Program-made: the position numbers and the translations under genes
In this document: positions 6,059-53,594 of the stretch, piece after piece
Layout of the letters: each line of letters opens with the position of its first letter
Numbering within the stretch: position 1 is the first letter of the stretch
Assembly: GCA_963699545.1 (NCBI GenBank)
Contig: CAVOUE010000009.1
Span: 159,692 to 223,691, forward strand
Source: Nitrospirota bacterium
Lineage (GTDB): Bacteria > Nitrospirota > Thermodesulfovibrionia > Thermodesulfovibrionales > UBA9159
Direction of reading: 5' to 3'
Length of the DNA stretch: 64,000 bases
The notes under the pieces: model-generated
Database searches by the model: none
Told to the model about the DNA's origin: nothing
Seen by the model: only the letters and a program-made list of their open reading frames with translations

Positions 6059-6068
6059 TTGAACATTC

Positions 6069-11190: not shown

Positions 11191-11298
11191 CTACTTTCCC
11201 CAAAATTACTTATTACAGTTCCCTCCAAATGATACAGAATCCATATCAAAATTCATAGGAGATAAACGTTTACTTGAACAACTTGTTCCCCGCCCCCG

Positions 11299-31074: not shown

Positions 31075-31264
31075 GAGCGGGAAGGCGTTCGCTTGACCGT
31101 ATGATTTGAAATACGCGGGAGCACACCCCATTTTTCTTCACTGTTCCCTGCGATTTCGTACCTGACCCCTGTCCTGGTGCGATTGCACATTCATACCGGC
31201 AGCTCTCACTCATTTCGATGCATTGGCGATGCGGACTTCGGAGGAAGAAGTACAAGACACCGGT

Positions 31265-33160: not shown

Positions 33161-33204
33161 CTGGGCACAGGTGCGAGCTTCTTCTTACCCTCATTGATTT
33201 TCTG

Positions 33205-33291
33205 TGGTGCCGAAGGCCGGACTCGAACCGGCACGCCGTTGCCGACGAGGGATTTTAAGTCCCTTGCGTCTACCAATTCCGCCACTCCGGC
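33205..33291 (-). tRNA. tRNA-Leu(TAA)
   Basis: GCCGGAGTGGCGGAATTGGTAGACGC-AAGGGA-CTTAAAA-TCCCT, long variable arm, GGTTCGAGTCC, CCA end. Confidence 0.97.
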
Positions 33292-33389
33292 AATAGTCGC
33301 ATCATTCTAAAAGATTGGAGGACCTTTGGTCAAATAAGGCAGGCGAGAGTACCGCACAAGCGCCCACTGCGCGACGAGACTTCCCCGCA

Positions 33390-34859
33390 TCACTGAGCAG
33401 GGACGATTTCGATCTCTTTTATCTCTTTTCTCAGTTCTTCTATCCATGCGGTTACAAAGGCCCTGATCTCGTTCTTTTCTCCGGGTCTGACGTCCTCGAA
33501 TGGCCTGTATGAAGGCCGCTTCATCACCGTCTTCAGGATCATGTAACCGTCCTTTGTCCAGACCACACTGATCTCCCCGTCCTTCAACAGTTCGATCCTG
33601 TCCTTGATCCATCCCTGTATCTCCTGAAACCCCGTCACCGAAAAACGCACCTTATCCGGGAATGCCGCTGCGATCTCCTCAAAGGTCTTTCCTGCTCTTG
33701 CCTGCCCCTGCAGTTCCGTGACAAGGGTCACCTTTCCCTGCTTGTCACCGTCGGTATAGTGCACCGTGAGCGACTCGACAACCCTTTCTTCCGGAACACT
33801 CCTGATCTTCCTGTTAATGAGGTCGCTGATGGAGAGATATCTGCGGAGATATTCTGCTTCGTCGCCGGTGAGTTTGAATTTCCCCGCAAGCTCGTTCACC
33901 TTGCCCGCATCCGCACTCACCTTCACCCTCAGTGCCTCGTCATAGAGAATCTGCTCGTTGACGAAATCCTCGAAGAGATTGCCGTTTCTCCACACCACCT
34001 CCCTGATCCCCACCTTTGCCACAGCCAATGAAGCGTTATGCATAAATTCAATCACCTGCAGTGTCGTATACTTTTCCCCATTGATCTTCACCGCCGGCGT
34101 CTTATATTTGAGGGGAGCATTGTGTCCCTCTTCTTCTTGCTTTCCTTCCCGGCTTTCCCCGCCCGGTGCCTGCCTCATGTTCCGGCGCTCGGCATCCAGC
34201 CTCTCCCTTTCGTCCCTCAACTGTTTGCGGTCTCTCTCCATCTCGGCCGTAAATCTTTTCTGCTCGTCTTCAGCCCTGGCAAGAAGGGCCTTACTTTCAG
34301 CCTCCTTTTTCTCCAGTTCTGTCATCCTCATTTTCATGTCTGCAGTCTTCTTTTGCTCTTCTTCCAGCAAAACACCGAGTTTTTTCTGCTCCTCCAGCGT
34401 CTTGCCCAACGGTTGCTCTGTCAGACGGACATTCTTTTCACTGTCTGCCTGCCGGGGCTCACGGAGCGCATCGCCTCTTTCCGGTTCATGACCGGTCCCG
34501 GGCCGCTTTGGAGGTGGTGCGTTCCCAAGGTCACTCAGTTCCCGTTCCACATGCGGCAAAAAAGGACTCTCAGGGAACTTCTGCTTCAACCCTGCAAAGA
34601 CCTTTCTCGCCTCGTCAAAGGACTTCACCTGGATCAGGGACTTCCCGAGCCAGAACAGGGCAGCGTCCCTGGCTGAACTTCGGGGAAATTCCAAAAGGAA
34701 CTTGTTCAGCGTATCAGCGGCCATTTCAGGCTGGTACGAAAGATAATACTCATAGCCTTTATCGAAAAGCTCGAATTCGCCGGACGCAGAGGGTTCAGAG
34801 ACCTGAAACAGCAGAGCGAGGAAGACCGCCGCCGCAATGATCCCCGGACGCACCTTCAC
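33390..34859 (-). CDS. Exported TPR (BamD/CpoB-like), coiled-coil and degenerate parvulin-like protein
   Basis: Signal-like N-terminus, FLLEFPRS..DAALFWLG TPR, long charged helix, TFEEIA..GEIS.V.T.DGYMILK. Confidence 0.65.
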   Translation of the reverse strand: MKVRPGIIAAAVFLALLFQVSEPSASGEFELFDKGYEYYLSYQPEMAADTLNKFLLEFPRSSARDAALFWLGKSLIQVKSFDEARKVFAGLKQKFPESPFLPHVERELSDLGNAPPPKRPGTGHEPERGDALREPRQADSEKNVRLTEQPLGKTLEEQKKLGVLLEEEQKKTADMKMRMTELEKKEAESKALLARAEDEQKRFTAEMERDRKQLRDERERLDAERRNMRQAPGGESREGKQEEEGHNAPLKYKTPAVKINGEKYTTLQVIEFMHNASLAVAKVGIREVVWRNGNLFEDFVNEQILYDEALRVKVSADAGKVNELAGKFKLTGDEAEYLRRYLSISDLINRKIRSVPEERVVESLTVHYTDGDKQGKVTLVTELQGQARAGKTFEEIAAAFPDKVRFSVTGFQEIQGWIKDRIELLKDGEISVVWTKDGYMILKTVMKRPSYRPFEDVRPGEKNEIRAFVTAWIEELRKEIKEIEIVPAQ

Positions 34860-34861
34860 CG

Positions 34862-35833
34862 TCAGTTCATGGTTATGGAAGCCTTTTCCCACAATACCTT
34901 TACCCATTCGCTGAGGAGGCTCTCCCTGTGCTGCGAATAGAGACGTTTACGGATCTCCTCCCTGACTTCTGCCAGAGATCTGAACCTCTCGGCCGTCCTG
35001 TCCTCAAGCTTCAAAATGTATACCCCCTCCCTGACCCATATGGGGTCGCTTATTTCCCCCACCTTCATCGAGAACGCCTGCTCATCAAGCTGGGGGATAA
35101 GGGTCCCCTTTTTGAACTCACCCAGTTTCCCTCCTTTGCCCTTCAGGGGTTCATCACTGTACCGGTTCACCAGTGCTCCAAAATTCTCACCGTCCTTCAA
35201 GCGAGCGGCTATCCGCAATGCCTTTCGCTTCAGGTCGGTGATCTCGGTGGCCGTGGCGCCCTCGCCGAGCCTGAGAAAGATCGCCTTCACATCAACAGTG
35301 GCAGGACTGGTCACGAAAGCCTGCTTATCAGCGTTATAAACGTTCTCGATCTCTCTATCCCTCACCACCACTTTCGAATCAACGTCCGCTTCCACCAATT
35401 TCAATGCCGTCATTTTATCCTTCATAAGGTTCCGATAACGCTGAAAACTCATGCCTTCCCCGACGATCTCTTTCTCAAAGTCCTCCCTGGACAGGCCGCT
35501 CTCCTTCCTCAATTCTTCGATCATCCTGTCTGCCTCTGCATCACTCGTTTCAACGCCCCTTTTTCTCGCTTCATTGAGGATCACCTTCTCTTCTATCAGC
35601 TTTTTCAGCACCGTCTCGTCCACGACATCTTTATTCGCCGGCATGCCGAGGCTTTTCGCAAACAGGAGATAATCGGACAGCGTAACAGCCTCTTTATCTA
35701 TGGTGGCAACAACCCTGTCTACGGTCATTCCATCGGAAGGAACAGCAGCCGTCACCAAAAGGAACGTGACGCCAACCACAATGAGTCGGTCAATAGGAAA
35801 GGAGCGAGCATTTATGGGTCGTTTCATCTGCAT
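34862..35833 (-). CDS. surA: SurA-like peptidylprolyl isomerase
   Basis: VDRVVATID, F.ALV.RYSD, GGKLG, GEISDPI. Confidence 0.8.
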   Translation of the reverse strand: MQMKRPINARSFPIDRLIVVGVTFLLVTAAVPSDGMTVDRVVATIDKEAVTLSDYLLFAKSLGMPANKDVVDETVLKKLIEEKVILNEARKRGVETSDAEADRMIEELRKESGLSREDFEKEIVGEGMSFQRYRNLMKDKMTALKLVEADVDSKVVVRDREIENVYNADKQAFVTSPATVDVKAIFLRLGEGATATEITDLKRKALRIAARLKDGENFGALVNRYSDEPLKGKGGKLGEFKKGTLIPQLDEQAFSMKVGEISDPIWVREGVYILKLEDRTAERFRSLAEVREEIRKRLYSQHRESLLSEWVKVLWEKASITMN

Positions 35834-35966
35834 GTTTATCAAGACAAAACCCTTTGCCGGAACAAGAAGAAGTCTCTTTTTGGAAGTGTAACAAAAAAGA
35901 AAGAAAAATCTCCACGCGTGACCTTCCCGCACACTGCCTCCACCGACCCATGGCACTGTCTCTCTG

Positions 35967-36722
35967 CTAATACATCAAGATGTAAAAAATCAGCGCTACA
36001 TATTCCTTCATCGCAAGGGACGAGTTCTTCAGATCACCCATGAGAGGGAAGTAATCCTGCCATCCATACCGCCTCCCGGGAATGGCACGGAAATCTGCAG
36101 GGAAAGGAACAACTTCCCGGCCAGCCTTACGAAAACTCAGCGCGGCACGTCTCATATGATATGCAGATGTCACGATCAAGGGCTGATGATATCCGAGCCT
36201 CGTACATATTTCCGCAGTGTTCCTGGCATTCTCCATGGTGTCCCTGCTCTTTTCCTCGGTGATGATCATGGCGGCAGGAACTCCCACGTCAACAAGGAAA
36301 CGCTTCACGATGGGCGCCTCCGCCTCCCTCTCCTTGAAAACCTTGCCACCCGATACAATGATGGGGATGTTGAGCCTCTTCTGCAGTCTCGCCGCAGTGA
36401 CGAGCCTTGCCGTCGTCTCTTCCGAGGGACTGCCTCTGCCCGAGAGATCAGGGACGTTGTCGTACGCACCTCCGCCAAGAAGGATGATCACATTGCCCTT
36501 CGGGTTCTGAGGTATCACAAGCTGATACTCAAGGCCTCTGAGCAGTGTATCAGCCACCGGAGAGGTGGAGAGAAGCCACAGCAGACAGCCGAGAAACAGA
36601 TTCACCAGAGCTGCCTTTGCGTTCCTCCTGAAAAAGAGCCATACGGAAGAGCACAGCAACAGCGCGACGAAGATGCCCGGGGGGAAGAGAAAGATGCCGG
36701 CTATCTTCTTGAAGAGAAACAT
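35967..36722 (-). CDS. YdcF/DUF218 family protein
   Basis: IILLGGG, IVSGG, EEKSRDTMENA, VTSAYHMRRA. Confidence 0.9.
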   Translation of the reverse strand: MFLFKKIAGIFLFPPGIFVALLLCSSVWLFFRRNAKAALVNLFLGCLLWLLSTSPVADTLLRGLEYQLVIPQNPKGNVIILLGGGAYDNVPDLSGRGSPSEETTARLVTAARLQKRLNIPIIVSGGKVFKEREAEAPIVKRFLVDVGVPAAMIITEEKSRDTMENARNTAEICTRLGYHQPLIVTSAYHMRRAALSFRKAGREVVPFPADFRAIPGRRYGWQDYFPLMGDLKNSSLAMKEYVALIFYILMY

Positions 36723-36843
36723 GTATCTACCGGTTGTTCGCAGAAACGTTCTTTCACTGCCACCGCAGTCCTCCTGGGAGACCTTCGTCCCGGGGAGAGA
36801 CCGACAGGAGGTTCTTCCTATCGGCGTCCTCATGCTCCCCGTC

Positions 36844-41636: not shown

Positions 41637-42827
41637 TCACAGTCTTTTTGCCAATGGATTCTTATGCCAGTTTACCATCTTGAACAATCCGTAAAGCGGC
41701 ACTTTCCAGAGGCTCCTTCCCCAGATGTGCCTCAGAAAGCTCGGAAAGCTGACAAGTTTATTGAGCAGCATTGTATCTCCCGCCAATCGTGAATGCTGAC
41801 ACCAAAGGTCGAGCATGGCAGTCCAGCGTGTGGGCGGATTGATATTGACCATGTGTTCAATCCGCTCATTCTTCGAAACAGGCAGATCGCAAATTCTGCG
41901 TAGGACCTCCGAAGGGATAGGGGCAGCCACCAAATCCTTCAGATAGTTCAGGGTCTCTCTCAGAGGCAAGACCAGGCGGCGTTTCCGGGACTGTTCAATG
42001 AGGCGATTCCAGCTAATTTCGGATTGGGAGGTATCGAGAATGATCGATGTATCCGCCACCCAACGGAATGGCGGAGTGTAGTTCCACCTTGCCCCGTGAA
42101 TGCAGGTGTGCAACAGTTGATCGGTTGGGTTTAAGACACAAGTAGGCACATCGTGGAATCTAGTCTCACTAGCCCCCTCCCAAAAATCATCGTCTGCATT
42201 TGCTTCCCGGCATTGCGACAATACGTGCCAGTGTAAATCAATTTCTTGTCCCTTTCCGTTTCTAAAACCGTGAGAATAACTAACGGACATATATTTATCG
42301 GCAGGCTCGAAATCCATCGGCGTCCATCCTAACGCTCGCAACAAATTCATTGCCGCAGAAACCTGATTCATGTGAATGAGGAGATCAAAATCATTCATCG
42401 GGCGAAGGCCATAATCTTTGTAATAGAGAGAGACGAGAGCAGCCCCCTTGAGCGTCATCGTCTCAATGCCCGCATCGTGAAAAGATCGGAGAAGCAAGGC
42501 AATCGCGTGGAATAAGACTTGGTTCTTGTACCATGTTTGACGATAGACACCTTTATATTTGCCCAGCGAAGGATCTTTGATCCCATGAACCTGTAAATTA
42601 CGATAGAGCAGAGGCAACATTCGGTAAGAACCGGGATCCAGTTCCTCTACTTCAACATCGGATTTCCATTCCTTCCAGGCCTCAATCGCTCCCGGACCCT
42701 TCAACAGCGCGGCCCGCAGAAGCAGTTCCTGCTGCGCGGTCGGCAGCCAGGATTCTTCATATCTTCCTGTATTCACAAATCGAATCGCCTGTCCTTCATG
42801 GTTTTGTATTGTTGCAGGAAAAGACAT
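41637..42827 (-). CDS. Nucleotidyltransferase family protein (NTP_transf_5-like)
   Basis: LKGAAL, RPMNDFDLLI, IDLHW, LLHTCIHG, RWVAD. Confidence 0.88.
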   Translation of the reverse strand: MSFPATIQNHEGQAIRFVNTGRYEESWLPTAQQELLLRAALLKGPGAIEAWKEWKSDVEVEELDPGSYRMLPLLYRNLQVHGIKDPSLGKYKGVYRQTWYKNQVLFHAIALLLRSFHDAGIETMTLKGAALVSLYYKDYGLRPMNDFDLLIHMNQVSAAMNLLRALGWTPMDFEPADKYMSVSYSHGFRNGKGQEIDLHWHVLSQCREANADDDFWEGASETRFHDVPTCVLNPTDQLLHTCIHGARWNYTPPFRWVADTSIILDTSQSEISWNRLIEQSRKRRLVLPLRETLNYLKDLVAAPIPSEVLRRICDLPVSKNERIEHMVNINPPTRWTAMLDLWCQHSRLAGDTMLLNKLVSFPSFLRHIWGRSLWKVPLYGLFKMVNWHKNPLAKRL

Positions 42828-44184
42828 GGATAAATTTTGTTATCGCCCGGACCTCGTGATAAGCAGCTTTCCAATGACCTGCTTTCGTGAGATTCAAAGG
42901 GTTTCCTTCTTCATCAGTGCTCGATATCCAGATACCGTCGTCAGACAGAATCTGATGCCGGAAAATCCAATTGAGGAGCAGGGCAAGCGCCCTGCGGTAC
43001 TCTGCCGCTGCTTCATGGCGAAGGGCATCGGCGAGGGCTGCAAGGCCTTCGGCCTGTACCCACCAGATTTTTTCGGTCTTCGAGGCAGGCTGTTCATCAA
43101 AGCCTTTGAAATAAAACCCTCCCCTCTTGTGGTCGAACCCATATTTCAAGGCATGATCAAGAATGCTGAAAAAATGATCCCAATCGGGAGGGATTTGCAA
43201 AACCTCCTGTGCATGTATCATTAACCAGGCGAATTCAACATTATGACCGTAACAAATCCCCTCGTGACGATTCCCTTTCACTTCGCCCCAGTCGGCCCGT
43301 CGGTATTCACAATATTTACTCGCATCTACAGGAAAAAAATATGTCTTATTGATATGCAGCGCCTCCATCAGCAAAGATCTGACCGATGCATTAGCAGTCA
43401 CATCGTAAAGCTCGGCCAGGGATTCCATCCAGTGCAAATGCGCGTTTCCGCTCTTGAATCCAAGCATATCGGGCATGCTTCTTGGGTACAATAACGACTT
43501 ATTGTTCAGACGTAACGGCCTGAAGTCTGCCTCTCCGTGCTCAATCCATCCGGAATTGATTTTATCGTAAAACATTTCCTGAACCTTTTCGTAGAGGGCA
43601 ACAGCCTGAGCAAGAGGGGCGGACAGACCGCTTGCACGGTGATACTCAACGAGGGCATAGAGGGCAAATGCCTGTCCGTAAAGAGATTTGCAGAGATCCA
43701 CCGCACGACCCCTGAGATCCGTTTTCCAGAAGAACCCTCCGTACTTCTTATCAAGCATATATTCAATCAAAAAAAGGTATCCGACTTCAGCAGCTTTTAG
43801 ATAATTCCGTTTCGCATCGCTGTAACCTAATCGGTGGGCAAGGGAAAATACGAGGATCAAGCGGCTTTGCGAAACCAATTGTTTTTCTCTTGCCTTGTGG
43901 GCGTGGATGTGAAACGTGGACGAGAGAGATGAAAGTAGACGACGCAGCCACGGGTTTCCCGCGTTTGGTGAAGAGTCAAGTTTGTCCGACAAAACATAAC
44001 CGCCGTTCCTTAAGTCGACGGTCGTGTCATACCAGTATGGCAGCACCTTCTCCCGCAGGTATATTTTCATCTCTTTTGCTATTTCACTTTTAGGTTTTTC
44101 TTTGAAATCGATCATCTGCATTTGATTTAAGAAATTCCATCGCCGCTTTTCTGAAGGAGCGATTTCCTTTAAGAGGCGCCTCAT
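42796..44184 (-). CDS. AGE-family epimerase/isomerase (cellobiose 2-epimerase-like)
   Basis: SQSRL, YGQAFALYAL, NAHLHWME, YGHNVEFAWL, KIWWVQAE, WKAAYHEVRA. Confidence 0.88.
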   Translation of the reverse strand: MRRLLKEIAPSEKRRWNFLNQMQMIDFKEKPKSEIAKEMKIYLREKVLPYWYDTTVDLRNGGYVLSDKLDSSPNAGNPWLRRLLSSLSSTFHIHAHKAREKQLVSQSRLILVFSLAHRLGYSDAKRNYLKAAEVGYLFLIEYMLDKKYGGFFWKTDLRGRAVDLCKSLYGQAFALYALVEYHRASGLSAPLAQAVALYEKVQEMFYDKINSGWIEHGEADFRPLRLNNKSLLYPRSMPDMLGFKSGNAHLHWMESLAELYDVTANASVRSLLMEALHINKTYFFPVDASKYCEYRRADWGEVKGNRHEGICYGHNVEFAWLMIHAQEVLQIPPDWDHFFSILDHALKYGFDHKRGGFYFKGFDEQPASKTEKIWWVQAEGLAALADALRHEAAAEYRRALALLLNWIFRHQILSDDGIWISSTDEEGNPLNLTKAGHWKAAYHEVRAITKFIHVFSCNNTKP

Positions 44185-44203: not shown

Positions 44204-44920
44204 TCATTTTACAGGGTCTTCCCCGACCGATGATTTGCGCCGTCTGTCAAGGGAAGCCTTGAGAATTCTCACAAACTCGGGGCGCGATTTGCGTTCACGA
44301 ATACCCGTATTGTCGGCATGGATCCGCCTCAACATTACGACTTCATTCAGCATAATGCTCTTCAGGCTCTTTTCCATCGCCCTCAAATACCAGTCAATAA
44401 AGTCTCCTATTTTCCACCTTGTTTCAAATGTCCCGACTCGAAAAAAGGAATCCCATTTAATAAGCATACTGCCCTTAAAAATCCCCTGCATAACCTCGGC
44501 AGGGATTCGGACCTTTTTTTTCTGATCTTCATCAAGCTCGGAACTGAAGAACTGTTTGACCTGACCGAATACAATGTCTACCTCGGGATTATTATCAAAG
44601 ACAGCCATCTGGCGCATTAATTTATCCTTCTTCCAGAGGTCGTCGGCATCAAGGAATGCGAGAAAACTTCCCCGTGATAATTCAATGCCTCTGTTTAGAG
44701 CAGAGCTGACACCGCCGTTATTCTTATAGATGTATCGCACCTGCGGAGCGAAGCTCTTTGCTATCCAGGCGCTGTTATCTGTTGATCCATCATCCACAAC
44801 AATGACTTCGATTGAGGGATAAGTCTGCCCGAGCACACTTTCGATGGCCTCCCTCAGATATTTTTCACCATTAAATACCGGAATGATGACGCTTACCAAA
44901 CGATCTTCTTCTTTCATCAA
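44204..44920 (-). CDS. GT2 glycosyltransferase
   Basis: VSVIIPVFN, VVDDGSTD, FLDADD, RRIHADN. Confidence 0.93.
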   Translation of the reverse strand: MMKEEDRLVSVIIPVFNGEKYLREAIESVLGQTYPSIEVIVVDDGSTDNSAWIAKSFAPQVRYIYKNNGGVSSALNRGIELSRGSFLAFLDADDLWKKDKLMRQMAVFDNNPEVDIVFGQVKQFFSSELDEDQKKKVRIPAEVMQGIFKGSMLIKWDSFFRVGTFETRWKIGDFIDWYLRAMEKSLKSIMLNEVVMLRRIHADNTGIRERKSRPEFVRILKASLDRRRKSSVGEDPVK

Positions 44921-44996: not shown

Positions 44997-46151
44997 TCAG
45001 GCCTGAATCTTTTTGATCCAGCCACAGAGTTGTCCCTTCCTGTAATTATACGAGTAGAGCATATATTTCCTGAGACCTTCATTTCTTAATATCTTGTAAT
45101 GTGCCTTGAGCGTTCGTCTCATTTGGTATCTTAGCCGCCTCGAGGGGTGCAATAGCATCTCGGCCGTCTCGCGTATGGCCCTGCTTTCCGCGTGCAGAGC
45201 CAGTTTCTTGAGCTCTCTTCTTTCCCACAGTCTGCGGCCGTACTTTTCAAAATCATCCGTTCTGACCTTCGTGTCCATCGCTCTGAAGGCCTGGATATTT
45301 TCTTCGATTTCCCGCATAGTATTCATTGAGGGTACGACAACGTCACATGGCGAATTCTGAATACACCATAAAAGGTGTCGCTGGGCCGGAGTCAAGGGCG
45401 GATTACCCTCAACAAGACATTCATTATTTAGGGGTTCAAAAACACTAATTTTCTTGTCCCACTGCGATGGGCCGCAATCCCAGCAAAAAAGTTTCATGCC
45501 GACAATCCCCACATCGTGATCCCGGGCAACAGGAAACAGCTCTTCATTCGCCTGCTGAAATTTCCAATTAAACCGTATCATGACATAGTCAATTGTGTCG
45601 GATTCACGGATGGCCCTGCTGATCAGGGGGAACAGGTTTATCGCATGACAACTGACACCGATGTTCTGAACAAGTTTTTCTTCCTTAAGTTTCATCATTG
45701 CTTCGCATACTGCAACCACGTCACCGTAAGAGGCATCCCCATTCCCAACACTTATAAAAAGCAAAGGCGCATTTGTATATCCTAAAAGATCAAGTCTCGC
45801 TTCGATTTCAGAGCGGAGCTTTTGACGCCATTGTGAATCCACGAGGGAGCCTCCATAAAGGGAAATCACCACATCCTCTTTGATATTTGCACGCCTGAAA
45901 GAATCAGCCAATAGTTCCACTTCCTCTATGTAGGTAGTGTCAAAATAATTTACACCGGAGGATACAAGATGTCGAATAAGTTGTGCTCGGGCGTCAGAAG
46001 ACATGAAACAATCAGGGCCGTGACCGACCGGATATGTATGTCCGCCGAGGCCGAGCACATTCACCTCAAAGCCCGTCCGGCCTAATCTTCGCACGCCCCT
46101 CTTCGATTTATTTTCCGTCTTTACCGCGAATGGAACTTTTTCTTTATCCAA
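44997..46151 (-). CDS. Aldo/keto reductase-like protein
   Basis: RRLGRTG..V..LGLGG, GVNYFDT, IGVSCH, VGIVGMK, VVVPSMN....IEENI. Confidence 0.8.
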   Translation of the reverse strand: MDKEKVPFAVKTENKSKRGVRRLGRTGFEVNVLGLGGHTYPVGHGPDCFMSSDARAQLIRHLVSSGVNYFDTTYIEEVELLADSFRRANIKEDVVISLYGGSLVDSQWRQKLRSEIEARLDLLGYTNAPLLFISVGNGDASYGDVVAVCEAMMKLKEEKLVQNIGVSCHAINLFPLISRAIRESDTIDYVMIRFNWKFQQANEELFPVARDHDVGIVGMKLFCWDCGPSQWDKKISVFEPLNNECLVEGNPPLTPAQRHLLWCIQNSPCDVVVPSMNTMREIEENIQAFRAMDTKVRTDDFEKYGRRLWERRELKKLALHAESRAIRETAEMLLHPSRRLRYQMRRTLKAHYKILRNEGLRKYMLYSYNYRKGQLCGWIKKIQA

Positions 46152-47308
46152 CTGAAAATCTGACCCTTTCTGTAATAGTAGGAATATTGAAAATATTTCA
46201 TAAAACCTTCATTCTTCAATATTCTATAATGTATCCTGATAGTTTTCTTCAACGGCGGGTGGGCTTTCGGGATTTTTATGTTGCCGACCACAAGAGGGAT
46301 GCAATCCGAATCCCGAGACAAAATGTTCGTGGAGATCAATGACAGCCACAAGGTAAACTCAGCGGTCACATCAAAATCGGCGTTGGTGAGCTCCCGGCTG
46401 GGACAATACCATCCTCCGTCCGCGTTTTGCTTCGCCATAATGAATTCTGCGATGTGCAATGCAATATCCCGATAACTTTCCTCGCCCGTACTTCGGTATA
46501 GCAAGGCACAGCCCCACCCGGCCTTGCCGCTTGAATAACCATCCCAGGGATTGATGCAACGCGCCTGAAAATCAAAGAACCACCTTGCCAGATCAAGATA
46601 TCGCGTCTCGTTGGTAGCATCGGCCAGCCGAATGAGGAAAACAAACGGAAGTCCCATAGCGAACCAGCACTGATCTGCCTTCCTCGTATCGATGATCCGC
46701 AAAAAGGCATCATGGTCGTCTTTCGGCTCTGTATATAATCGACCGTCAGCGTTGACCGCAGTGAAAAAGCGATCATTGGGTTCCGGCTGCAAATGTATGA
46801 TGCGGGCGAGATAGTCTGCAATACGTCGGGCTGCATCGATCTTCCCGGCCGCCAAACAGGCAATACCGGCCATACCGGACGACGTAGTATCCGCCATCTC
46901 TCTTCCGCCCTGGTTTGTAAGCCGTGAATAGAATCCACCGTGACCCGCCTGCTGTGCGAGCAAGAACGAGACGGCGGGCATAGCTATATCATAGCGCCCT
47001 GCAAGCATGCTGCCGACAATGAGGTAAGAATTGACATAAGGATAATGGGCCGTGTTGTGCCAGGGATGCTCCCGGGAAAGGAAATCACCTTCTCCAGAAA
47101 AAAAATGCTGCCGCACATAGTTCAGCGAGCGATGTGCCGAAGCAAGCTGTCCGGTCTCCGCCAATGCCCAGCAAGACTTGTAGAAAGCATCTACTTTCGG
47201 GTCCTTTAGGCCCTTCCAGCTCCCGTCTGGATTCTGATGTTCCACAAGCCATCGACTACCTGCGAGGGCACGTTCCAGAATCTGTTTTGCAGGCAGAGGT
47301 TTAGCCAC
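46121..47308 (-). CDS. Prenyltransferase/squalene-cyclase repeat (QW motif) alpha/alpha-toroid protein
   Basis: WLVEHQNPDGSW, FLLAQQAGHGGF and FIMAKQNADGGW repeats. Probable GTG start overlaps the upstream stop. Confidence 0.7.
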   Translation of the reverse strand: MAKPLPAKQILERALAGSRWLVEHQNPDGSWKGLKDPKVDAFYKSCWALAETGQLASAHRSLNYVRQHFFSGEGDFLSREHPWHNTAHYPYVNSYLIVGSMLAGRYDIAMPAVSFLLAQQAGHGGFYSRLTNQGGREMADTTSSGMAGIACLAAGKIDAARRIADYLARIIHLQPEPNDRFFTAVNADGRLYTEPKDDHDAFLRIIDTRKADQCWFAMGLPFVFLIRLADATNETRYLDLARWFFDFQARCINPWDGYSSGKAGWGCALLYRSTGEESYRDIALHIAEFIMAKQNADGGWYCPSRELTNADFDVTAEFTLWLSLISTNILSRDSDCIPLVVGNIKIPKAHPPLKKTIRIHYRILKNEGFMKYFQYSYYYRKGQIFSWIKKKFHSR

Positions 47309-48083
47309 CCGATTGGTCTTTTGACTGCCTGCCTGCTGAACCGGCGGGTTCTTCTCCAAAGAAGGAGAGTCCGGGCAGGGACTCAGCTTCGCTACTATTT
47401 CCTTGTCTTCGCCTGTCAAGTGACTTCTTGAGCATTCCGATAAAATAATGCTTGCCCAATTCCTCCTGATTTGTAATATTACGTTCATGCCGCCGATAAT
47501 AGTGCGTCACCTCTTTATGCATCAGCATCTGAACATTACGTTCCCTGGCCCGCATGAACCAGTCCCAATCATCACAGTATCCCTGTGTCTCATCAAAAAA
47601 CCCCACTTTATCAAAAACAGATCTCCTAAACAATGCACTCCCGACGTTCATAGTAAGTACGGGATCCGACCATTTCTTGAAAGCAGACTCCCCATCGACA
47701 GCGCGCCTTAACATTAAGATCTGCGTATATCCTACGACGATCTCCACTGAACCCGCATCCTTCAAAAGAGCAGACTGAAGCGCAAGTTTATTTTCGCTCC
47801 AAAGATCATCGACATCCAGAAAGGTTATCAAATCCCCTTTGGCCATTTCTATTCCTCTGTTACGTGCGGCCGGCGGTCCGCTGTTGTCTTGATAAAAATA
47901 GCGTATGTTACCCTTCAAACCCTGAGCGATTTCCCCGGTACTGTCCGTCGAGCCGTCATCCACAATGATAATTTCCAACGATTCGTACTCCTGTCTCCGG
48001 ATGCTCTCGACAGCCTCCGCCAAAAAGAACTCTCCGTTGTACACAGGTAGTATGACGCTGACGAAGGACAGAGGCGATGCCAT
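47301..48083 (-). CDS. GT2 glycosyltransferase
   Basis: VSVILPVYN, DDGSTD, FLDVDD, RRHERNIT. Confidence 0.93.
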   Translation of the reverse strand: MASPLSFVSVILPVYNGEFFLAEAVESIRRQEYESLEIIIVDDGSTDSTGEIAQGLKGNIRYFYQDNSGPPAARNRGIEMAKGDLITFLDVDDLWSENKLALQSALLKDAGSVEIVVGYTQILMLRRAVDGESAFKKWSDPVLTMNVGSALFRRSVFDKVGFFDETQGYCDDWDWFMRARERNVQMLMHKEVTHYYRRHERNITNQEELGKHYFIGMLKKSLDRRRQGNSSEAESLPGLSFFGEEPAGSAGRQSKDQSGG

Positions 48084-48190
48084 GCCTACCTCCTGCCGGA
48101 ACTACTTGTGAGTATCGATTCTCTCCGTGTTTGCATCTACTGCTTCCTCCATCCTGATCTCTCCGCTGCTAACAGAGTTTTGATGACAGC

Positions 48191-48937
48191 TCATGACTTT
48201 TTCATATCCGCCAGTTTCGGAAAAGGGACTACTTCGCCCGCCTCTTGTCTGCGGCGATCCAGGGACTTTTTTAAAGCCTTTATAAAAAATCTGTTTCGCG
48301 TCGCCGAATCGAGGGTCATATTGGACTCATGATGACGATAAAAAAGGCTCACCGCTTCCGTAATCGTCATCGAGACACTGTGTTCCCTGGCCCGCATGAA
48401 CCAATCGGTATCCTCACCGTAGCAAAGTGTTTCATCAAAAAGACCGACTTTATCAAATACCGACCTTCTAAAAACTGCAGCTCCGAACAAAAGGGCACAA
48501 TAAGGATCATGCCAGTTTTCAAATCTTGATCGGCCGTCTTCCCCCATCCGTAACTTCATCGGCTGGCTGAGACCCAGAACTATCTCCACCGACACATCTG
48601 CAAGAAGGCTAAGCTGGAGCGAAAGTTTATTCCTGCTCCAAAGATCATCGGCATCCAAAAAGCCGATAACCTTCCCACGAGACATTTGCAGTCCTCTGTT
48701 GCGCGCTGCCGCCGGTCCACGGTTTTCCTGGCGGGTATAAATGATGTGGTCACTGTATCGCCCGGCGACGGTTTCCGTATTATCCGTTGAACCGTCATTT
48801 ACAACGATCACTTCAATCGGCCCGTACTCCTGAACCAGTACGCTCTCGATGGCTTCGCTCAGGTAACGTCCGCCATTGTAGGAAGGAATAATGACGCTTA
48901 CGAGAGAGCTACCCATTTTTTTCATTTTTTTGCTCAA
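48191..48937 (-). CDS. GT2 glycosyltransferase
   Basis: VSVIIPSYN, NDGSTD, FLDADD, GEDTDW, RHHESNMT. Confidence 0.93.
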   Translation of the reverse strand: MSKKMKKMGSSLVSVIIPSYNGGRYLSEAIESVLVQEYGPIEVIVVNDGSTDNTETVAGRYSDHIIYTRQENRGPAAARNRGLQMSRGKVIGFLDADDLWSRNKLSLQLSLLADVSVEIVLGLSQPMKLRMGEDGRSRFENWHDPYCALLFGAAVFRRSVFDKVGLFDETLCYGEDTDWFMRAREHSVSMTITEAVSLFYRHHESNMTLDSATRNRFFIKALKKSLDRRRQEAGEVVPFPKLADMKKS

Positions 48938-50210
48938 GCGCCTTTTTTATTGAAACCGTGCCATCATCGGACTCACCGAAAACCTTTTCTGCTTCAGCGC
49001 ACATAGTCGTCCCGCAGAGCGCATCGATCCTCAACAGAACCCGAAGCGCAGCGTGTTTCCATGTCCAGTACTTGCGTGCTCGCAATGCTCCCCGAGTTCC
49101 TCTTTTAAGGATTCCCAAGGGGGAATTGTATGCTACGCGCAGAATCTCCTCAAGCCGCTTATTGTTCGGTTCGAGTAGGAAGCATTCCTTGTCGAGCTGA
49201 TGGCCGAATACTTTTCTGCCTGAGGAACGTTTTTCGGCATCGATAATCCAACCCACCTCTTCATCCACAAAATCATCTGTAGCCCCGCCGCGGGTGACTA
49301 TAACCGGAAGACCGCTGGACATCGCTTCCAGAGTTGGCAGGGAGAAACCCTCACCACGGTAGGATGAGACAAAAACATCACAGGCCCGATAGAGCGCTGC
49401 CAGCTCCTTCTCGCTGATATCATCATCAATGTAACAAATTTCCGGCATCCCTTTCTGCCCCTGGTACTTCGTGATGAGATCCTGTGAAGTCTGGCCTTTA
49501 TAAATGGTGTTCACTCCCAGATCCTTGATGACCAGGCAGACGTCGTCTTTCGAGGTAAAGGCGCGGGAATAACTCTCAAGCAGAATGTCGAGACCTTTAC
49601 GGTAGATGGTTCCGCCGACAAAGAGGAACTTAAAACGCTTGGTTGTCCGGAGCTCCAGCGATGCACCAGCCGGAGAAAACATCTCGGGGTCCGTACCATT
49701 GGGTACGACATGGACTTTAAGCGGGTCCATACCCGACGAGACAAAGGCATTGCGCGAAAACTTCGACGGCGTCCAGATCTCTTCCGCCTTAGCGAAAGTA
49801 TCAGTATAGTATTTTGGGATTGCCGAATACTCCCATGGATACATGATAATCCATTTAGCTTTACCTGGAGGATTTTGCCTCGGGGGCCATTGATGACGTA
49901 CCCAGACATGCGGGCGTATCGCGCGATCTTTCACAGAAAACCCTTTGGTACGTATATCGTGAGCCAAGAGCTTCTCTAGCTTTGGATTACCTTTCGCAGA
50001 AAACTGATCCGGCTCATAGGGGACGATGGTAAGTTCAGCAACGCCGGTATCAATGATGCTCGAACACAATTCCCGATTTATGAGAGACATTGAATTTATT
50101 GCAAACTGGGTGCCCTCCCAGAAGATATGAGCCTGTTTCCTCGGATCGGGCACGCCCTGAACCTCGATGAGCCGGGGAATGACCTGCTGTTTACAGGACC
50201 CTTCACTCAT
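48909..50210 (-). CDS. GT4 glycosyltransferase
   Basis: RHQWPP, PWEY, RKGLDILL, EGFSLPTLEAM. Confidence 0.92.
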   Translation of the reverse strand: MSEGSCKQQVIPRLIEVQGVPDPRKQAHIFWEGTQFAINSMSLINRELCSSIIDTGVAELTIVPYEPDQFSAKGNPKLEKLLAHDIRTKGFSVKDRAIRPHVWVRHQWPPRQNPPGKAKWIIMYPWEYSAIPKYYTDTFAKAEEIWTPSKFSRNAFVSSGMDPLKVHVVPNGTDPEMFSPAGASLELRTTKRFKFLFVGGTIYRKGLDILLESYSRAFTSKDDVCLVIKDLGVNTIYKGQTSQDLITKYQGQKGMPEICYIDDDISEKELAALYRACDVFVSSYRGEGFSLPTLEAMSSGLPVIVTRGGATDDFVDEEVGWIIDAEKRSSGRKVFGHQLDKECFLLEPNNKRLEEILRVAYNSPLGILKRGTRGALRARKYWTWKHAALRVLLRIDALCGTTMCAEAEKVFGESDDGTVSIKKALEQKNEKNG

Positions 50211-52032
50211 TGTGTCCCCGCTGCCGGTCCCGCATTCTGTCCAGACTCTTTTTCAAGACACGAAGCTGATTCAATTCAACAGGATTCTTGCCATGGGTCA
50301 TATTGTTACCATGCCTCCGGACAAGCAGGGTGATATCCTCCAATTTCTTGATGCCCACCTTTAACTCCCGCGCCCTCATGAACCAGTCACTATCCTCGCC
50401 ATAGCGCAGAGTCGGGTCAAACAGGCCCACTTTGGTGAATGCCGACCTGCGGTACAGCGCCGCTCCGATGTAATAGGGAAATGCCCCTATCGGACTCCCG
50501 CTATATTCATAGGTACGGGTTTCAGGATTACAGACGGCCAGTTGGCCATATCCGTGGACCACCTCAACGTCGTTATCCTGCAACAGCTCCTTTGCCAGAA
50601 TATAGAGATTTTTTTTGGGCCATAGGTCATCCGCATCAAGGATTGCAATATATTCACCCAGCGCTTCTTCGATCCCCCTGTTTCTTGCCGCGGCAGGGCC
50701 ATTATTCCCTTGACTGAAATACCGGATTTCATACGGCAATTGCCTGATGATGTCGGCCGTGTTATCCGTAGAGCCGTCGTCAATAACAATAATTTCTAAA
50801 GAAGGGTAATCCTGAGATATGATATTCTCCACCGCTTCCCGGATAAACTGCCCGCCGTTGAATACAGGCACAATGACACTCACGGAAGGCCATGTTGCGG
50901 AAGCGCCCCGATGTTCCGCAGAATCATCATATGCAGGAGAGATGTTAATCGGATTCCTATAGGGAAGGTCATCGATCAAGTCGGAGACAGCTGCAGGGAT
51001 ATGTGTCAAATCGCGCCCCAACTCCAGATTGAAGCAGGGGAGGCTTGATGATAATTCATCAAGGAACTCAGACGTTCTAATGCTCGCCCCGGGCAATAAA
51101 GTTATCGTAGTGAAAGACGCCGCGCGAAGAGCGTTTTCTGAAGATGTTCTTGTGAGTTTCGATTCGTTCCTGTCTGTAATCCGGGGAACAATGATCGCTT
51201 TTAAAGGCATTGACTTGATAATTTGCCCGCTGAGTGCGGGATAGAGAAAGAGGATCGCTTTTTCATCTCTCGGTCCTCCGGGATTTGAAATTAATCCAGA
51301 CAATTCGGGAAATCTTTCCGCCTGATCCGCGTTCAATTTTGCCGTGCTGTATAAGCTGAACACGCGTGGTTCCGGCTTCAAACGTGTGACGACAAAATCA
51401 TCGCCCAGATAAAAAAAACCGGATTTCAAGCAGGACAGAGCCGAAGTCGATTTTCCGACGCCCCCCTTGCCGGTTAAAAGTACTGCGCCGTTTTTCGTGC
51501 CGACTGCCGCGGCGTGAATAAGCTGGCATTCATTTTTCTCCATCCACCAGTGCAGTAACGTTCTGAGCGGTGAGGCTTTCACCCAAAAAGGCAGGTTCTC
51601 AGCGTGTTCCACCCAAAACAGCCCGGTATTCATTTCCACGTCCAGCATGTTCAAGGAGAACTCAACCCAATGAAACGCAGTTTTTATCTTCCTGTTGTTA
51701 TAACCCCAGATATCTCCCCTATCTGTATATCTATCGCGTTTCCACGGCGGTGAAATCATGCTTTTTTGGGTGGAGTGGCTGTCCCATAGGCAAATAGTTA
51801 GATCAGGGACCACGGCTTCAGATATCCTGAGATGACTTAAAGCAGGCGTTATATGAGGGATTAAGGCTTCACCGGCAAAAGAGAGATGAACTGTCGTGTC
51901 ACATATTTTGTAATAAAAATCAATTCCCCCGGCAGAAGACCTCGCTTCCAGGAATCGCTGATACGCACTCTGAAAAAAAGCTTCCTGCTCTTCTACAGAC
52001 TCTGCCGCACCCATGGCTTTTTTCGACGTCAA
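50203..52032 (-). CDS. HprK-like P-loop kinase fused to a GT2 glycosyltransferase
   Basis: IHAAAV, GKGGVGKST Walker A and LGDD, followed by VSVIVPVFN, DDGSTD, LDADD, GEDSDW. Confidence 0.88.
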   Translation of the reverse strand: MTSKKAMGAAESVEEQEAFFQSAYQRFLEARSSAGGIDFYYKICDTTVHLSFAGEALIPHITPALSHLRISEAVVPDLTICLWDSHSTQKSMISPPWKRDRYTDRGDIWGYNNRKIKTAFHWVEFSLNMLDVEMNTGLFWVEHAENLPFWVKASPLRTLLHWWMEKNECQLIHAAAVGTKNGAVLLTGKGGVGKSTSALSCLKSGFFYLGDDFVVTRLKPEPRVFSLYSTAKLNADQAERFPELSGLISNPGGPRDEKAILFLYPALSGQIIKSMPLKAIIVPRITDRNESKLTRTSSENALRAASFTTITLLPGASIRTSEFLDELSSSLPCFNLELGRDLTHIPAAVSDLIDDLPYRNPINISPAYDDSAEHRGASATWPSVSVIVPVFNGGQFIREAVENIISQDYPSLEIIVIDDGSTDNTADIIRQLPYEIRYFSQGNNGPAAARNRGIEEALGEYIAILDADDLWPKKNLYILAKELLQDNDVEVVHGYGQLAVCNPETRTYEYSGSPIGAFPYYIGAALYRRSAFTKVGLFDPTLRYGEDSDWFMRARELKVGIKKLEDITLLVRRHGNNMTHGKNPVELNQLRVLKKSLDRMRDRQRGHNE

Positions 52033-52050
52033 TGGCCCTCAAACACACAT

Positions 52051-52524
52051 TCATTTTTCGCTGACGGCAGGATCACTTTTGGCGCTCGGCCAGCCTGTTT
52101 CATCGACATCGTGAATCGGATCCAATAAGAGCACGTCCTGCATATCAGTATAGCAATGCAGAACGGGCGCTTCAAAGACGAGGGTTCCCTCTGCCGATTG
52201 GATTCCAATCTTCTCACCGGACCGAGCATCCCCTTTGAATTCTTCAGATTCGAATACCGAGATCAGGCCTTCCCTCTGTAACTCGTCCATAAATCGCTGA
52301 ACAGCCTTCACAAGGTCGTTACGATCACCGGTATACCGGTGATCGATATCTTCTGCGATTTCATCTACTGGAACAGCTCTCTCGATAAGTGCCCACACCT
52401 CGGCGCCGACCCCGTCGAGGCTATAATAGTTGCCGCTATCAAGATTAACCATGACCGTTTCTCCATCAATTGTCTCATGGATAACTTTAGGGCTGTTAAT
52501 ACGATACATCTTGAATATCTTCAT
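52051..52524 (-). CDS. PqqD-family / RiPP recognition element protein with a C-terminal peptide extension
   Basis: HETIDGETVMVNLDSGNYYSLDGVGAEVW...FMDELQREGLI, then the tail FEAPVLHCYTDMQDVLLLDPIHDVDETGWP. Confidence 0.88.
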   Translation of the reverse strand: MKIFKMYRINSPKVIHETIDGETVMVNLDSGNYYSLDGVGAEVWALIERAVPVDEIAEDIDHRYTGDRNDLVKAVQRFMDELQREGLISVFESEEFKGDARSGEKIGIQSAEGTLVFEAPVLHCYTDMQDVLLLDPIHDVDETGWPSAKSDPAVSEK

Positions 52525-52652
52525 AGGTTGTCTCAATCGGATCAACGTCTTTTTACGTTATATGCTAACAAACTCTTTGTTTTAATTTCAAGACAAGAGG
52601 CAACCAGAAGAAAGTCGCTAATTGAATACACGAAGTGATAGAATAACGAAAC

Positions 52653-53594
52653 ATGAAGACCCTCGTTTTCTATCCGCAATCCGGCTTGGCGAATCGCTTA
52701 CGAGCCATAGCATCCGCAAAAATCCTGGCTGACTATGCAGGGAGAAGACTTCTGGTCAACTGGATGCCGTCCGTGACGGAATGCAATGTCGCATGGGAAG
52801 ATTTATTCGTCAGTCAATTAGAGCGCTATCCGTTGCCTTTATCGAGTTTTCAAAACGGTGTAAATTTCTACGACGATACCGGGAGTTATGATTTTTACTG
52901 GGATATGCCGCAGTTGTTGGCACAGAACAAATTTGATGTAGTTGCAGTGCGCACATTTCGCAACTTTAGACCAAAAGGAATGACAGAAGAGGCTTTTAAG
53001 CGCTCAAAATCTCTTTTTTATAGAAGCCTAAAACCTGTAAGCGTCATTCAAGAAGCTGTGAGCGGTATCCAAGAACAATACTTTAAAGGTAATGACGTCA
53101 TAGGTGTTCATATACGGAGAACCGACTACTTTTCTTATTTACGACAAGATTCTAAGGCCGTCGCTCCCACGGATGTATTTATCAGGAAGATGATGCGAAT
53201 TCTTAAAACCAATCCAAGGGTAAAGTTTTTTCTTGCTACTGATGATAAGAATGAAGAACAGATTATTAAAGATCATTTGCAGAATGCAGTAATAGTTCAT
53301 GAAAAAGACACTGTGAGCAGATTAACAAGGAACGGCATGGAGGACGCCCTGATCGACTGGTTGCTTTTGTCAAGAACGTCAAAGATCATAGGGTCTTACA
53401 GGAGCTCTTTTAACGAAGAGGCCAGTATCATAAATATGATAGACCTTGAAACAATCCCCAAACAGGCGGTGCTGCTAAATTTCAAAGCTCATTATAACCT
53501 TTTGAAGACAAGCGGTCTCAAGAAGGTTCTTCTTTATTCCTACTATTACAGAAAAGAAAAGCTGTGGGAATGGCTCAAAAGAATCTCTCAATAA
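52653..53594 (+). CDS. Fucosyltransferase-like GT-B glycosyltransferase (GT11/GT23/NodZ-like)
   Basis: GLANRLR, IGVHIRRTD, FFLATD, D..LLS......GS..SSF. Confidence 0.75.
   Translation: MKTLVFYPQSGLANRLRAIASAKILADYAGRRLLVNWMPSVTECNVAWEDLFVSQLERYPLPLSSFQNGVNFYDDTGSYDFYWDMPQLLAQNKFDVVAVRTFRNFRPKGMTEEAFKRSKSLFYRSLKPVSVIQEAVSGIQEQYFKGNDVIGVHIRRTDYFSYLRQDSKAVAPTDVFIRKMMRILKTNPRVKFFLATDDKNEEQIIKDHLQNAVIVHEKDTVSRLTRNGMEDALIDWLLLSRTSKIIGSYRSSFNEEASIINMIDLETIPKQAVLLNFKAHYNLLKTSGLKKVLLYSYYYRKEKLWEWLKRISQ

Follow-up and report, generated by a model that had tools for sequence, protein, structure and literature searches.

A portable terminal module of about 40 residues shared by unrelated enzymes of bacterial glycan gene clusters

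Why do an aldo-keto reductase (AKR), an (alpha/alpha)6 “QW” protein, and a NodZ/FUT8-fold fucosyltransferase-like protein, encoded in one gene cluster, all end in a homologous tail of ~40 amino acids? We analyzed the 64,000-nucleotide stretch of Nitrospirota DNA that carries them (the window), in which all three tail sequences quoted in the original prediction, namely that three unrelated enzymes share one ending, are present as written. The tails and the genes of the cluster are laid out as follows:

41637..42827, minus strand: NTP_transf_5 “uncharacterised nucleotidyltransferase” (PF14907, E 4.9e-42)
42796..44184, minus strand: AGE-family (N-acylglucosamine/cellobiose 2-epimerase-like) protein (PF07221, E 2e-31)
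44204..44920, minus strand: GT2 glycosyltransferase (PF00535, E 2.5e-37)
44997..46151, minus strand: aldo-keto reductase, tail host (PF00248, E 1.4e-13; orthologues of 371-392 aa)
45000..45125, minus strand: tail copy 1, the last 42 aa of the aldo-keto reductase (HMM residues 343-383 of 384)
46121..47488, minus strand: (alpha/alpha)6-toroid QW protein, tail host (weak, sub-threshold Pfam matches to SQHop_cyclase_N, GH88, and TED)
46124..46252, minus strand: tail copy 2, the last 43 aa of the QW protein (HMM residues 413-453 of 455)
47301..48083, minus strand: GT2 glycosyltransferase (PF00535, E 1.7e-32)
48191..48937, minus strand: GT2 glycosyltransferase (PF00535, E 1.6e-33)
48909..50210, minus strand: GT4 glycosyltransferase (PF00534, E 5.9e-17)
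50203..52032, minus strand: HPr-kinase-like domain fused to GT2 (PF07475, E 6.6e-5, below cut-off; PF00535, E 5.6e-35)
52051..52545, minus strand: PqqD-domain protein of 164 aa, first gene of the minus-strand operon (PF05402, E 5.6e-16)
52653..53594, plus strand: NodZ/FUT8-fold glycosyltransferase-like protein, tail host (PF05830 NodZ, E 2e-6, below cut-off)
53472..53591, plus strand: tail copy 3, the last 40 aa of the NodZ-like protein (HMM residues 274-312 of 313)

The catalytic parts of the three hosts match different Pfam families, in keeping with the three different folds that had been proposed: PF00248 for the AKR, weak alpha/alpha-toroid matches for the QW protein, and PF05830 for the NodZ-like protein, whose AF2 model retrieves NodZ, FUT8, FUT1, and POFUT2 as top Foldseek matches (E ~1e-9). 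Orthologues of the QW protein have 394-435 aa, its atlas leads are unnamed clusters of ~330 aa and GH88/GH76-like clusters, and its true start is probably downstream of 47301. With its listed TTG start, the AKR gene shares 31 nt with the QW tail; this start may have been placed too far upstream. The NodZ-like gene is divergent from the PqqD gene, and the HPr-kinase-like/GT2 fusion gives weak matches to TIGR04355 and TIGR04352.

The three tails align without gaps over ~40 columns, with 13 invariant positions and pairwise identities of 48-55%. As identity at the DNA level is just 73% per column, conservation acts on the protein and is not that of a DNA repeat. The module spans ~38-42 aa, beginning ~4-6 residues upstream of a His-Tyr pair, so that the shared tail stands as described and its proposed length of ~35 aa was too short. 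A profile built from the three tails and run against their own 3.04-Mb genome recovers the AKR, QW, and NodZ-like copies at E 1.7e-25, 1.6e-23, and 5.3e-23, respectively, with no fourth place among the 25 candidates scored (next match E 0.21); the likeness of the three tails is far beyond chance. The tail has no significant match to a curated family or solved structure: Pfam and NCBIfam matches on the full-length proteins leave the tail uncovered, 43 tails searched alone against Pfam (E ≤ 10) give single-member matches only, at E ≥ 0.03, and a profile search of the PDB has no match (best E 0.1).

We gathered 116 unique tail-bearing sequences, carried mostly by NodZ-like (41), AKR (33), and QW (22) proteins, followed by a 283-aa unknown family (4), GT2 enzymes (3), APH kinases (3), three types of methyltransferase, and a SPASM fragment. 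The tail is therefore portable, as had been suggested, being present on at least 10 unrelated host families and lying 0-7 residues from the C terminus in nearly all sequences; in one protein (P0047) it is N-terminal, at residues 19-58, and P0015 may be a second such case. It is also rare, with 15 representatives in 1.84 billion proteins, and is confined to one family of the phylum whose relatives are named Nitrospirae/Thermodesulfovibrionales. Tail genes always lie in GT2/GT4-rich glycan clusters: across 39 loci the most widespread neighbor is GT2 (27/39), then GT4 (13) and NTP_transf_5 (8); no small unknown partner recurs. Two adjacent tail genes, either QW and AKR or two NodZ-like genes, are found in 16 of the 39 related loci, a single one in G014 and L021, and at one locus (L022) genes of a Wzm/Wzt-type ABC-2 transporter adjoin the QW and AKR tail genes. 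NodZ-like homologues at ≤42% identity lack the tail; most end right after the catalytic domain, at ~260-280 aa, and a few distant ones (P0131, P0133-P0135, and P0127) carry unrelated Arg/Trp-rich basic C-terminal extensions in its place.

Tail identity between host families (45-58%) is about that within families (48-64%). Among 43 tails, Gly and one Tyr never vary, and conservation reaches at least 90% at H, L, S, Y, R, and K positions. The tail is under purifying selection, with pN/pS ratios of 0.35 for AKR (66 pairs), 0.33 for NodZ-like (6 pairs), and 0.30 for QW proteins (15 pairs), synonymous sites being near saturation in these pairs. Relative to the linker that precedes it, the tail is more conserved in QW proteins (0.65 vs. 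0.50), about equally conserved in AKRs (0.61 vs. 0.59), and less conserved in NodZ-like proteins (0.48 vs. 0.59). We conclude that the tail is a genuine module, portable and under selection, that had not been described before.

Its predicted layout runs from a basic amphipathic helix through the invariant Gly and a segment rich in Tyr (Y-S-Y-x-Y-R-K) to a short helix rich in Trp and Lys. The three tails have net charges of +10, +11, and +7 and contain 6, 11, and 8 aromatic residues in 40-42 aa; they are among 24 of 2,721 crude C-terminal 40-mers of the genome with a charge of at least +7 and at least 6 aromatics. The C terminus of the NTP_transf_5 protein, also cationic and aromatic, is another of the 24. 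The first helix of the AKR and QW tails has a hydrophobic moment (muH) of 0.6-0.78 in 11-residue windows, the high-moment stretch of the NodZ-like tail is the last helix (0.63-0.75), and the central Tyr-rich segment is not amphipathic (≤0.12 in 18-residue windows, Fauchere-Pliska scale); high values of the lipid-binding discriminant D are mostly driven by charge. The full-length AF2 model of the NodZ-like protein places tail helices at 271-287 and 289-312, broken at the invariant Gly288, but at a pLDDT of 42-52, so that neither a confident fold nor packing on the catalytic domain is predicted. Modeled alone with 43 sequences, the tail is one long helix (pLDDT 81), on which conserved Y/L/G/Y/Y/Y residues at 3-4-residue spacing would form a heptad-like stripe that includes the Gly.

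The best explanation, which we hold with middling confidence, is that the tail serves to tether or dock its hosts at the membrane-associated place of glycan assembly. An autonomous unit of ~40 residues, added in one lineage to tailoring enzymes that are otherwise soluble and belong to GT2/GT4-rich glycan clusters, would tether them where the cell-surface glycan is built. The reductase, the toroid and fucosyltransferase-like enzymes, the kinases, and the methyltransferases would then not diffuse through the cytosol but work on an intermediate kept at the membrane. A docking or localization signal had been proposed from the start and is still the best reading; we infer tethering, by a lipid or protein partner, from the composition of the tail, the predicted helix-Gly-helix, its exclusive residence in glycan clusters, and the basic extensions of distant NodZ-like homologues. 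Because the central segment is not amphipathic, the tail is not a textbook in-plane anchor, and since its residue-specific conservation exceeds the needs of a generic membrane helix, a specific protein or ligand partner, or a folded mini-domain, is indicated at least as much. Against a membrane tether, no obvious integral-membrane or export protein is found among the Pfam/NCBIfam matches of the window cluster (41.6-53.6 kb).

The same conservation, the identity across host families, and the non-amphipathic center would also fit a tail that serves as the docking code of one particular hub protein, which gathers the enzymes into a complex, with membrane binding secondary or absent. Candidate hubs are the small GT2 enzymes, the HPr-kinase-like (HPrK)-GT2 fusion, and the PqqD protein, whose alignment has an invariant acidic C-terminal motif opposite in charge to the tail; NodZ-tail and PqqD genes are divergently paired in the window, G014, L050, and L053, and GT2 genes lie beside tail genes at most loci, although GT2 is ubiquitous in glycan clusters and this co-occurrence says little. 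The distribution, however, does not tie the tail to PqqD or the HPrK-like protein, and no dedicated partner family is common to all locus types. Neither protein is encoded near the tail genes of L022 (14 kb), L038 (12 kb), or L039-42 (contig fragments), nor was either found in tail-positive G017 (79% complete), whereas in the related genome G004 (77% complete) an 11-kb contig encodes the PqqD/HPrK-GT2/NTP_transf_5 core, its PqqD bearing the same acidic motif, and no tail protein was found there or elsewhere in that genome. We consider a docking code for such a hub unlikely. A narrower version, in which the tail is a cytoplasmic mini-domain of ~40 aa read by a pathway hub (where present, the PqqD protein or HPrK-GT2 fusion, acting as an RRE-type chaperone that recruits enzymes instead of presenting a peptide substrate) and interchangeable tailoring enzymes assemble into a glycan/phosphoglycan metabolon, is quite improbable. 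So, to a similar degree, is self-association of the tails into a homo- or hetero-oligomeric helical bundle that would cluster the enzymes into one particle: paired tail genes, the single long helix, and its stripe are consistent with a bundle, but tail genes also occur singly, and charges of +7 to +11 per tail would repel unless neutralized.

Very improbable, in our estimate, is that the tail is a RiPP-like substrate or recognition peptide, bound by the PqqD RRE, phosphorylated by the HPrK-like domain on the Ser of YSY, and then glycosylated. The window cluster does hold all three proteins of the triad (PqqD, HPrK-like, and NTP_transf_5) that matches the lasso-peptide phospho-glycosylation machinery, in which, according to the review PMC8498205, an HPr-kinase homologue phosphorylates Ser and a nucleotidyltransferase adds hexoses, and the Ser of YSY is 95% conserved among tails. 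Tail and PqqD/HPrK coincide in 3 of 19 genomes of the family, with neither in 14, but such co-occurrence is expected from genes that share one island, and the loci above dissociate the two in both directions; an obligate pairing of the tail with an RRE protein is not seen across these contig fragments and genomes of 77-79% completeness. Moreover, according to PMC8498205, the characterized HPr-kinase homologues of this kind phosphorylate a C-terminal Ser, whereas the conserved Ser is internal, ~15-20 residues from the end, and the three window tails end in A, R, and Q (...IQA, ...HSR, and ...ISQ). The RRE-docking and kinase-target readings of the original prediction are thus weakened. Finally, short terminal helices common to unrelated enzymes at either terminus are a hallmark of encapsulation peptides, and the genome encodes three BMC-domain proteins (G000:C9:17.8-22 kb). 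Targeting to a microcompartment or encapsulin is nevertheless disfavored, to the point of being extremely improbable: PF00936 exceeds its cut-off in 1 of the 19 family genomes, G000 only, tail-positive G011 and G014 (97% and 96% complete) yielded no BMC genes, G000 itself yielded no encapsulin (PF04454), and its BMC genes lie ~140 kb or more from the cluster, whose tail hosts are glycan enzymes.

Should the tail suffice on its own as a tether, it would amount to a compact, movable address label of 40 aa, which nature has already passed among at least 10 enzyme folds and attached at either end of the protein, and it would offer a ready-made tool for bringing enzymes together at the membranes of bacteria. 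Such a tether would also account for the way in which reductases, kinases, and methyltransferases, though soluble, remain with lipid-linked glycan intermediates in an uncultured lineage that has been little studied. The analysis further flags an uncharacterized glycan island in which a PqqD-domain protein, an HPr-kinase-like/GT2 fusion, and NTP_transf_5 occur together and lasso-peptide genes are absent.

Among known systems, the window cluster shares with lasso-peptide phospho-glycosylation its three protein types (PqqD-like B1, HPr-kinase homologue, and nucleotidyltransferase). It differs in that no lasso cyclase, protease, or precursor gene is seen in the cluster and in that the tails belong to enzymes of 300-450 aa. 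Encapsulation and cargo-loading peptides likewise put one short peptide at the N or C terminus of unrelated enzymes, but no shell genes co-occur with the tail. Dockerin-cohesin pairs and the docking helices of PKS/NRPS systems are small modules at protein ends whose shared code brings different catalytic proteins together; the tail is similarly small, terminal, and attached to different catalytic proteins, but no cognate receptor module is identified near tail genes, and Pfam and the PDB hold no match. PEP-CTERM and LPXTG-like tags sit on secreted proteins and consist of a hydrophobic transmembrane segment and, after it, a cluster of basic residues; a C-terminal sorting tag of this kind, as generally defined, was rejected because the longest uncharged hydrophobic run in the tail, read from the sequence as YLLYSYxY, has only ~8 residues. 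Membrane-targeting sequences of the MinD/FtsA type, of ~10-20 aa, are conserved in pattern rather than in residues; the tail resembles them in being short, terminal, cationic, helical, and transferable and in having a variable linker between it and the catalytic domain, and departs from them in its length of ~40 aa, its invariant Gly and Tyr, and its fixed YSYxYRK core. WbdD, the chain terminator of the Escherichia coli O9a O-antigen, has a C-terminal amphipathic helix that locates it to the membrane. Compared by description, that helix belongs to one protein and the tail to at least 10 enzyme families, whose center is rich in Tyr and non-amphipathic; yet kinases and methyltransferases are among the bearers of the tail, one locus has it encoded next to Wzm/Wzt-type transporter genes, and, as in WbdD and the MinD/FtsA-type sequences, it sits at a protein end, after a variable linker, whatever the fold of the catalytic domain.

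A cationic, tyrosine-rich tail of about 40 residues ends three proteins encoded in the window, whose open reading frames and C-terminal sequences are present exactly as the original prediction gave them.

Genes of the window that carry the tail
44997-46151, minus strand: aldo-keto reductase (AKR) with tail; PF00248
46121-47488, minus strand: "QW" (alpha/alpha)6-type protein with tail; toroid-family matches, all weak
52653-53594, plus strand: NodZ-like protein with tail; NodZ-like

The three tails align without internal gaps over their last 40-43 residues, identity being 48-55% and 13 columns invariant, and a profile made from them finds these three places only in the 3.04-Mb genome that holds the window (87% complete; E 1.7e-25, 1.6e-23, and 5.3e-23), the next-best place standing at E 0.21. 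The alignment and this search confirm that unrelated enzymes share a tail, and the accompanying claim of three different folds stands: a TIM barrel, an alpha/alpha toroid (as a lead only), and a fucosyltransferase fold, the AF2 model of the NodZ-like protein (mean pLDDT 72.6) giving Foldseek matches to NodZ, FUT8, FUT1, and POFUT2 at E ~1e-9. A chance match is excluded by the own-genome E-values and by pN/pS; likewise, the tails are conserved as protein (pN/pS ~0.3), with DNA identity of 73% per column, which excludes a DNA repeat or mobile element as their origin. The starts listed for two of the genes are probably called too far upstream, judging from shorter orthologous sequences: read from its TTG start, the AKR gene shares 31 nt with the end of the QW gene (46121-46151), and the QW gene in turn overlaps the upstream GT2 gene by ~190 nt.

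Searching 1.84 billion representative proteins with a profile returned 15 matches at E<=0.001; another 67 came from 5.8 billion clusters in a word-indexed search, and 36 loci from a metagenome scan; 48 of 97 additional NodZ-like homologues carry the tail as well, and a second word-indexed search, with a profile of 43 tails, returned 32 matches and no new host family. Pooling the first four of these sets, we obtained 116 unique tail-bearing sequences.

Hosts of the tail among the 116 unique sequences
NodZ-like: 41
AKR: 33
QW: 22
283-aa unknown family: 4
GT2: 3
APH-type kinases: 3
Methyltransferases: three types
SPASM: a fragment
Fragments or special cases: 7

Tail identity across host families (45-58%) is similar to that inside one host family (48-64%), and only 0-7 residues follow the tail at the C terminus, the exceptions being P0015 and P0047; in the latter, a methyltransferase, it is N-terminal (residues 19-58), and in the related methyltransferase P0045 it is C-terminal. 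Pooled pN/pS is 0.35 for the tails of the AKR, 0.33 for the NodZ-like, and 0.30 for the QW proteins (pS 0.47-0.66); the tails are under purifying selection. The GT2 protein P0070 holds the second half of the tail only; the NodZ-like P0003, which comes from the same sample type, has a nearly identical sequence in its tail, which suggests a recent recombination or exchange of the module between genes. We rejected the 82-aa P0004 as a "TM helix plus tail" protein; it matches the C-terminal portion of P0023, of the 283-aa family, and is therefore probably a fragment or has a mis-called start.

The tail genes of the window lie in a glycan gene cluster (island) with a G+C content of 0.44-0.50, versus 0.52-0.55 in the flanks, bordered by a UbiD-family gene and pth. 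On the minus strand the island runs, in order, NTP_transf_5, AGE epimerase-like, GT2, AKR-tail, QW-tail, GT2, GT2, GT4, a fusion of an HPr-kinase-like domain (HPrK) with GT2, and PqqD, from which the NodZ-like tail gene is divergent. Another genome of the family (G011) and the related locus L021 are syntenic with it, the order pth, NodZ-tail, PqqD, HPrK-GT2 is repeated at loci L050 and L053, and a further family genome, G014, has a reduced island (NodZ-tail, PqqD, HPrK, GT2, methyltransferase, GT2, GT2, NTP_transf_5), in which an apparent gap of 2.2 kb holds plus-strand GT2, Methyltransf_24-like, and GT2 genes. Two tail genes are adjacent in 16 of 39 related loci, where the commonest families beside tail genes are GT2 (27 loci), GT4 (13), and NTP_transf_5 (8), and where we saw no small protein of unknown kind that recurs beside them.

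Within the window, the GT2 domains (44204-44920, 47301-48083, 48191-48937, and 50203-52032) are four paralogues sharing a basic C-terminal motif of their own, (L/A)LK(K/A)SLDR(R/M)R; the last is the minus-strand HPrK fusion, whose matches to PF07475, TIGR04355, and TIGR04352 are weak, and the kinase-like protein of G014 is unfused (368 aa). At 5-12 kb from the island lie GalU (29744-30679) and an ElyC-like envelope factor (35967-36833), along with large open reading frames at 31265-33160 and 33390-34907 that have no NCBIfam match at E<=1e-20; the genes of 29744-36833 may be part of envelope glycan metabolism. A stretch at ~6000-12000, with a G+C content of only 0.39-0.43, contains a transposase fragment of the IS3 family (7888-8469) and, at 8474-9256, a gene for TcmP ("three-Cys-motif partner"); it probably represents an inserted element of mobile or defence type.

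Of 19 genomes searched in the window's family, four carry the tail (the window's own, G000, and G011, G014, and G017); it was found in none of 22 genomes of the order's other families in the genome collection, and in 3 of 401 genomes of a phylum-wide sample, all of the window's family; these counts are samples, and absence means not found among those searched. Homologues are named in their sources as Nitrospirae and Thermodesulfovibrionales MAGs. An alignment-based scan of genome contigs for related loci matched 129 stretches, of which tblastn confirmed none.

The original prediction is partly supported: the homology, portability, selection, and context of the tail are shown and bear out a portable module, localisation or docking is its likeliest role, and a dedicated link to an RRE (the PqqD protein) or the kinase is not supported. 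PqqD and the HPrK-like domain occur in G000, G011, G014, and G004, and across the 19 family genomes 3 have both the tail and PqqD/HPrK, 14 have neither, and 2 are discordant. Tail genes are present at the following related loci, where PqqD, HPrK, and NTP_transf_5 were not found in the DNA available.

Related loci with tail genes
L022 (14 kb): GT4, methyltransferase, GT4, Wzt/Wzm-type ABC-2 genes, GT2, QW-tail, AKR-tail
L038 (12 kb): radical SAM, 287-aa tail protein, NodZ-tail, GT2
L039-42: GT2, two NodZ-tail genes, GT4, GT6

The reverse is seen in G004, whose 11.4-kb contig (L055) encodes NTP_transf_5, PqqD, a second NTP_transf_5, an ABC exporter (fused TMD and NBD, 567 aa), HPrK-GT2, GT2, and a polytopic membrane protein of 479 aa, with no tail-bearing enzyme on that contig. 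These loci are contig fragments, and completeness is 77% for G004 and 79% for G017; even given these caveats, the distribution does not support an obligate pairing of the tail with the RRE or kinase. The predicted complex of the PqqD protein with the tail scored 0.02 against a mark of 0.32, with controls not folded, and speaks neither for nor against binding. No small conserved precursor-peptide open reading frame was found beside PqqD, the gap there being 107 bp in the window; the corresponding 450-bp gap in G004 has, besides one of 81 aa, only short open reading frames that are not conserved. The PqqD protein itself (52051-52545, minus strand) carries, after a variable linker, an acidic C-terminal motif at residues ~124-153, F..P.L.KYTDMQDLLLLDPIH[DE]VDE.GWP, nearly invariant in 7 of 7 proteins (window, L016, L021, L050, L053, L055, and L056) and conserved more strongly than the PqqD domain; it is present in G004 (L055) too, where a tail protein was not found.

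Per-column analysis divides the tail into four parts. A helix comes first, its hydrophobic stripe clean and lying opposite a basic one; the invariant Gly follows, then a core rich in Tyr and Leu (Y-L-L-Y-S-Y-x-Y-R-K) and hydrophobic on every side, and last a short end that is hydrophobic/Trp and Lys-rich. All 43 distinct tails share the Gly and one Tyr, and conservation reaches 90% or more at positions with His, Leu, Ser, Tyr, Arg, and Lys. The full-length AF2 model of the NodZ-like protein has the tail as two helices broken at the invariant Gly, at a pLDDT of 42-52 that gives no confident fold or packing against the catalytic domain; modelled alone from 43 sequences, the tail is a single helix (pLDDT 81, pTM 0.37). 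The three tails have net charges of +10, +11, and +7 and 6, 11, and 8 aromatic residues, a composition that is not unique to them, since 24 of 2721 crude open reading frames of the genome, the three included and some probably spurious, end in equally cationic and aromatic 40-mers. One of these is the NTP_transf_5 protein (41637-42827, minus strand), whose last 40 residues are Trp/Phe-rich (charge +8, 7 aromatics); this end is not homologous to the tail. NodZ-like homologues at <=42% identity lack the tail, most stopping just past the catalytic domain. The distant P0131, P0133-P0135, and P0127 (32-40% identity) have unrelated Arg/Trp-rich basic extensions in its place, which hints that the NodZ-like family has resorted to a basic C-terminal appendage more than once.

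We give about even chances to the tail being a portable tether or docking module, which would hold soluble tailoring enzymes at a membrane-associated glycan assembly site; this function, and any partner, we infer. Binding of a specific protein or ligand partner is an unlikely reading, and self-association of the tails an improbable one, each kept alive by a core that is not amphipathic and by conservation of individual residues. An encapsulation peptide is disfavoured: the genome that holds the window has three BMC-domain (PF00936) shell genes outside the window (C9:17828-22043), yet within the family such genes exceed the cut-off in that genome only, being absent from the tail-positive G011 and G014, and encapsulin was not found.

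No entry matching the tail was found in Pfam, NCBIfam, or PDB; "undescribed" thus refers to family and structure libraries rather than to proof from the literature. The parts covered of the literature on lasso PqqD/HPr-kinase/nucleotidyltransferase systems, on NTP_transf_5 or PqqD, and on the WbdD helix do not mention it. Lasso-type HPr-kinase homologues, as described in the portion of the source covered, place phosphate onto a C-terminal Ser, hexoses then being added by a nucleotidyltransferase (PMC8498205); in contrast, the last residue of the tails is A, R, or Q, the Ser that they conserve lying further inside, and the triad of PqqD, HPrK-like, and NTP_transf_5 here comes without a lasso cyclase, protease, or recognisable precursor gene. 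As a sequence family the tail is new, and its functional kind is already known, the C-terminal membrane-locating amphipathic helix of WbdD, as far as the material covered describes it, being a precedent for a membrane tether.
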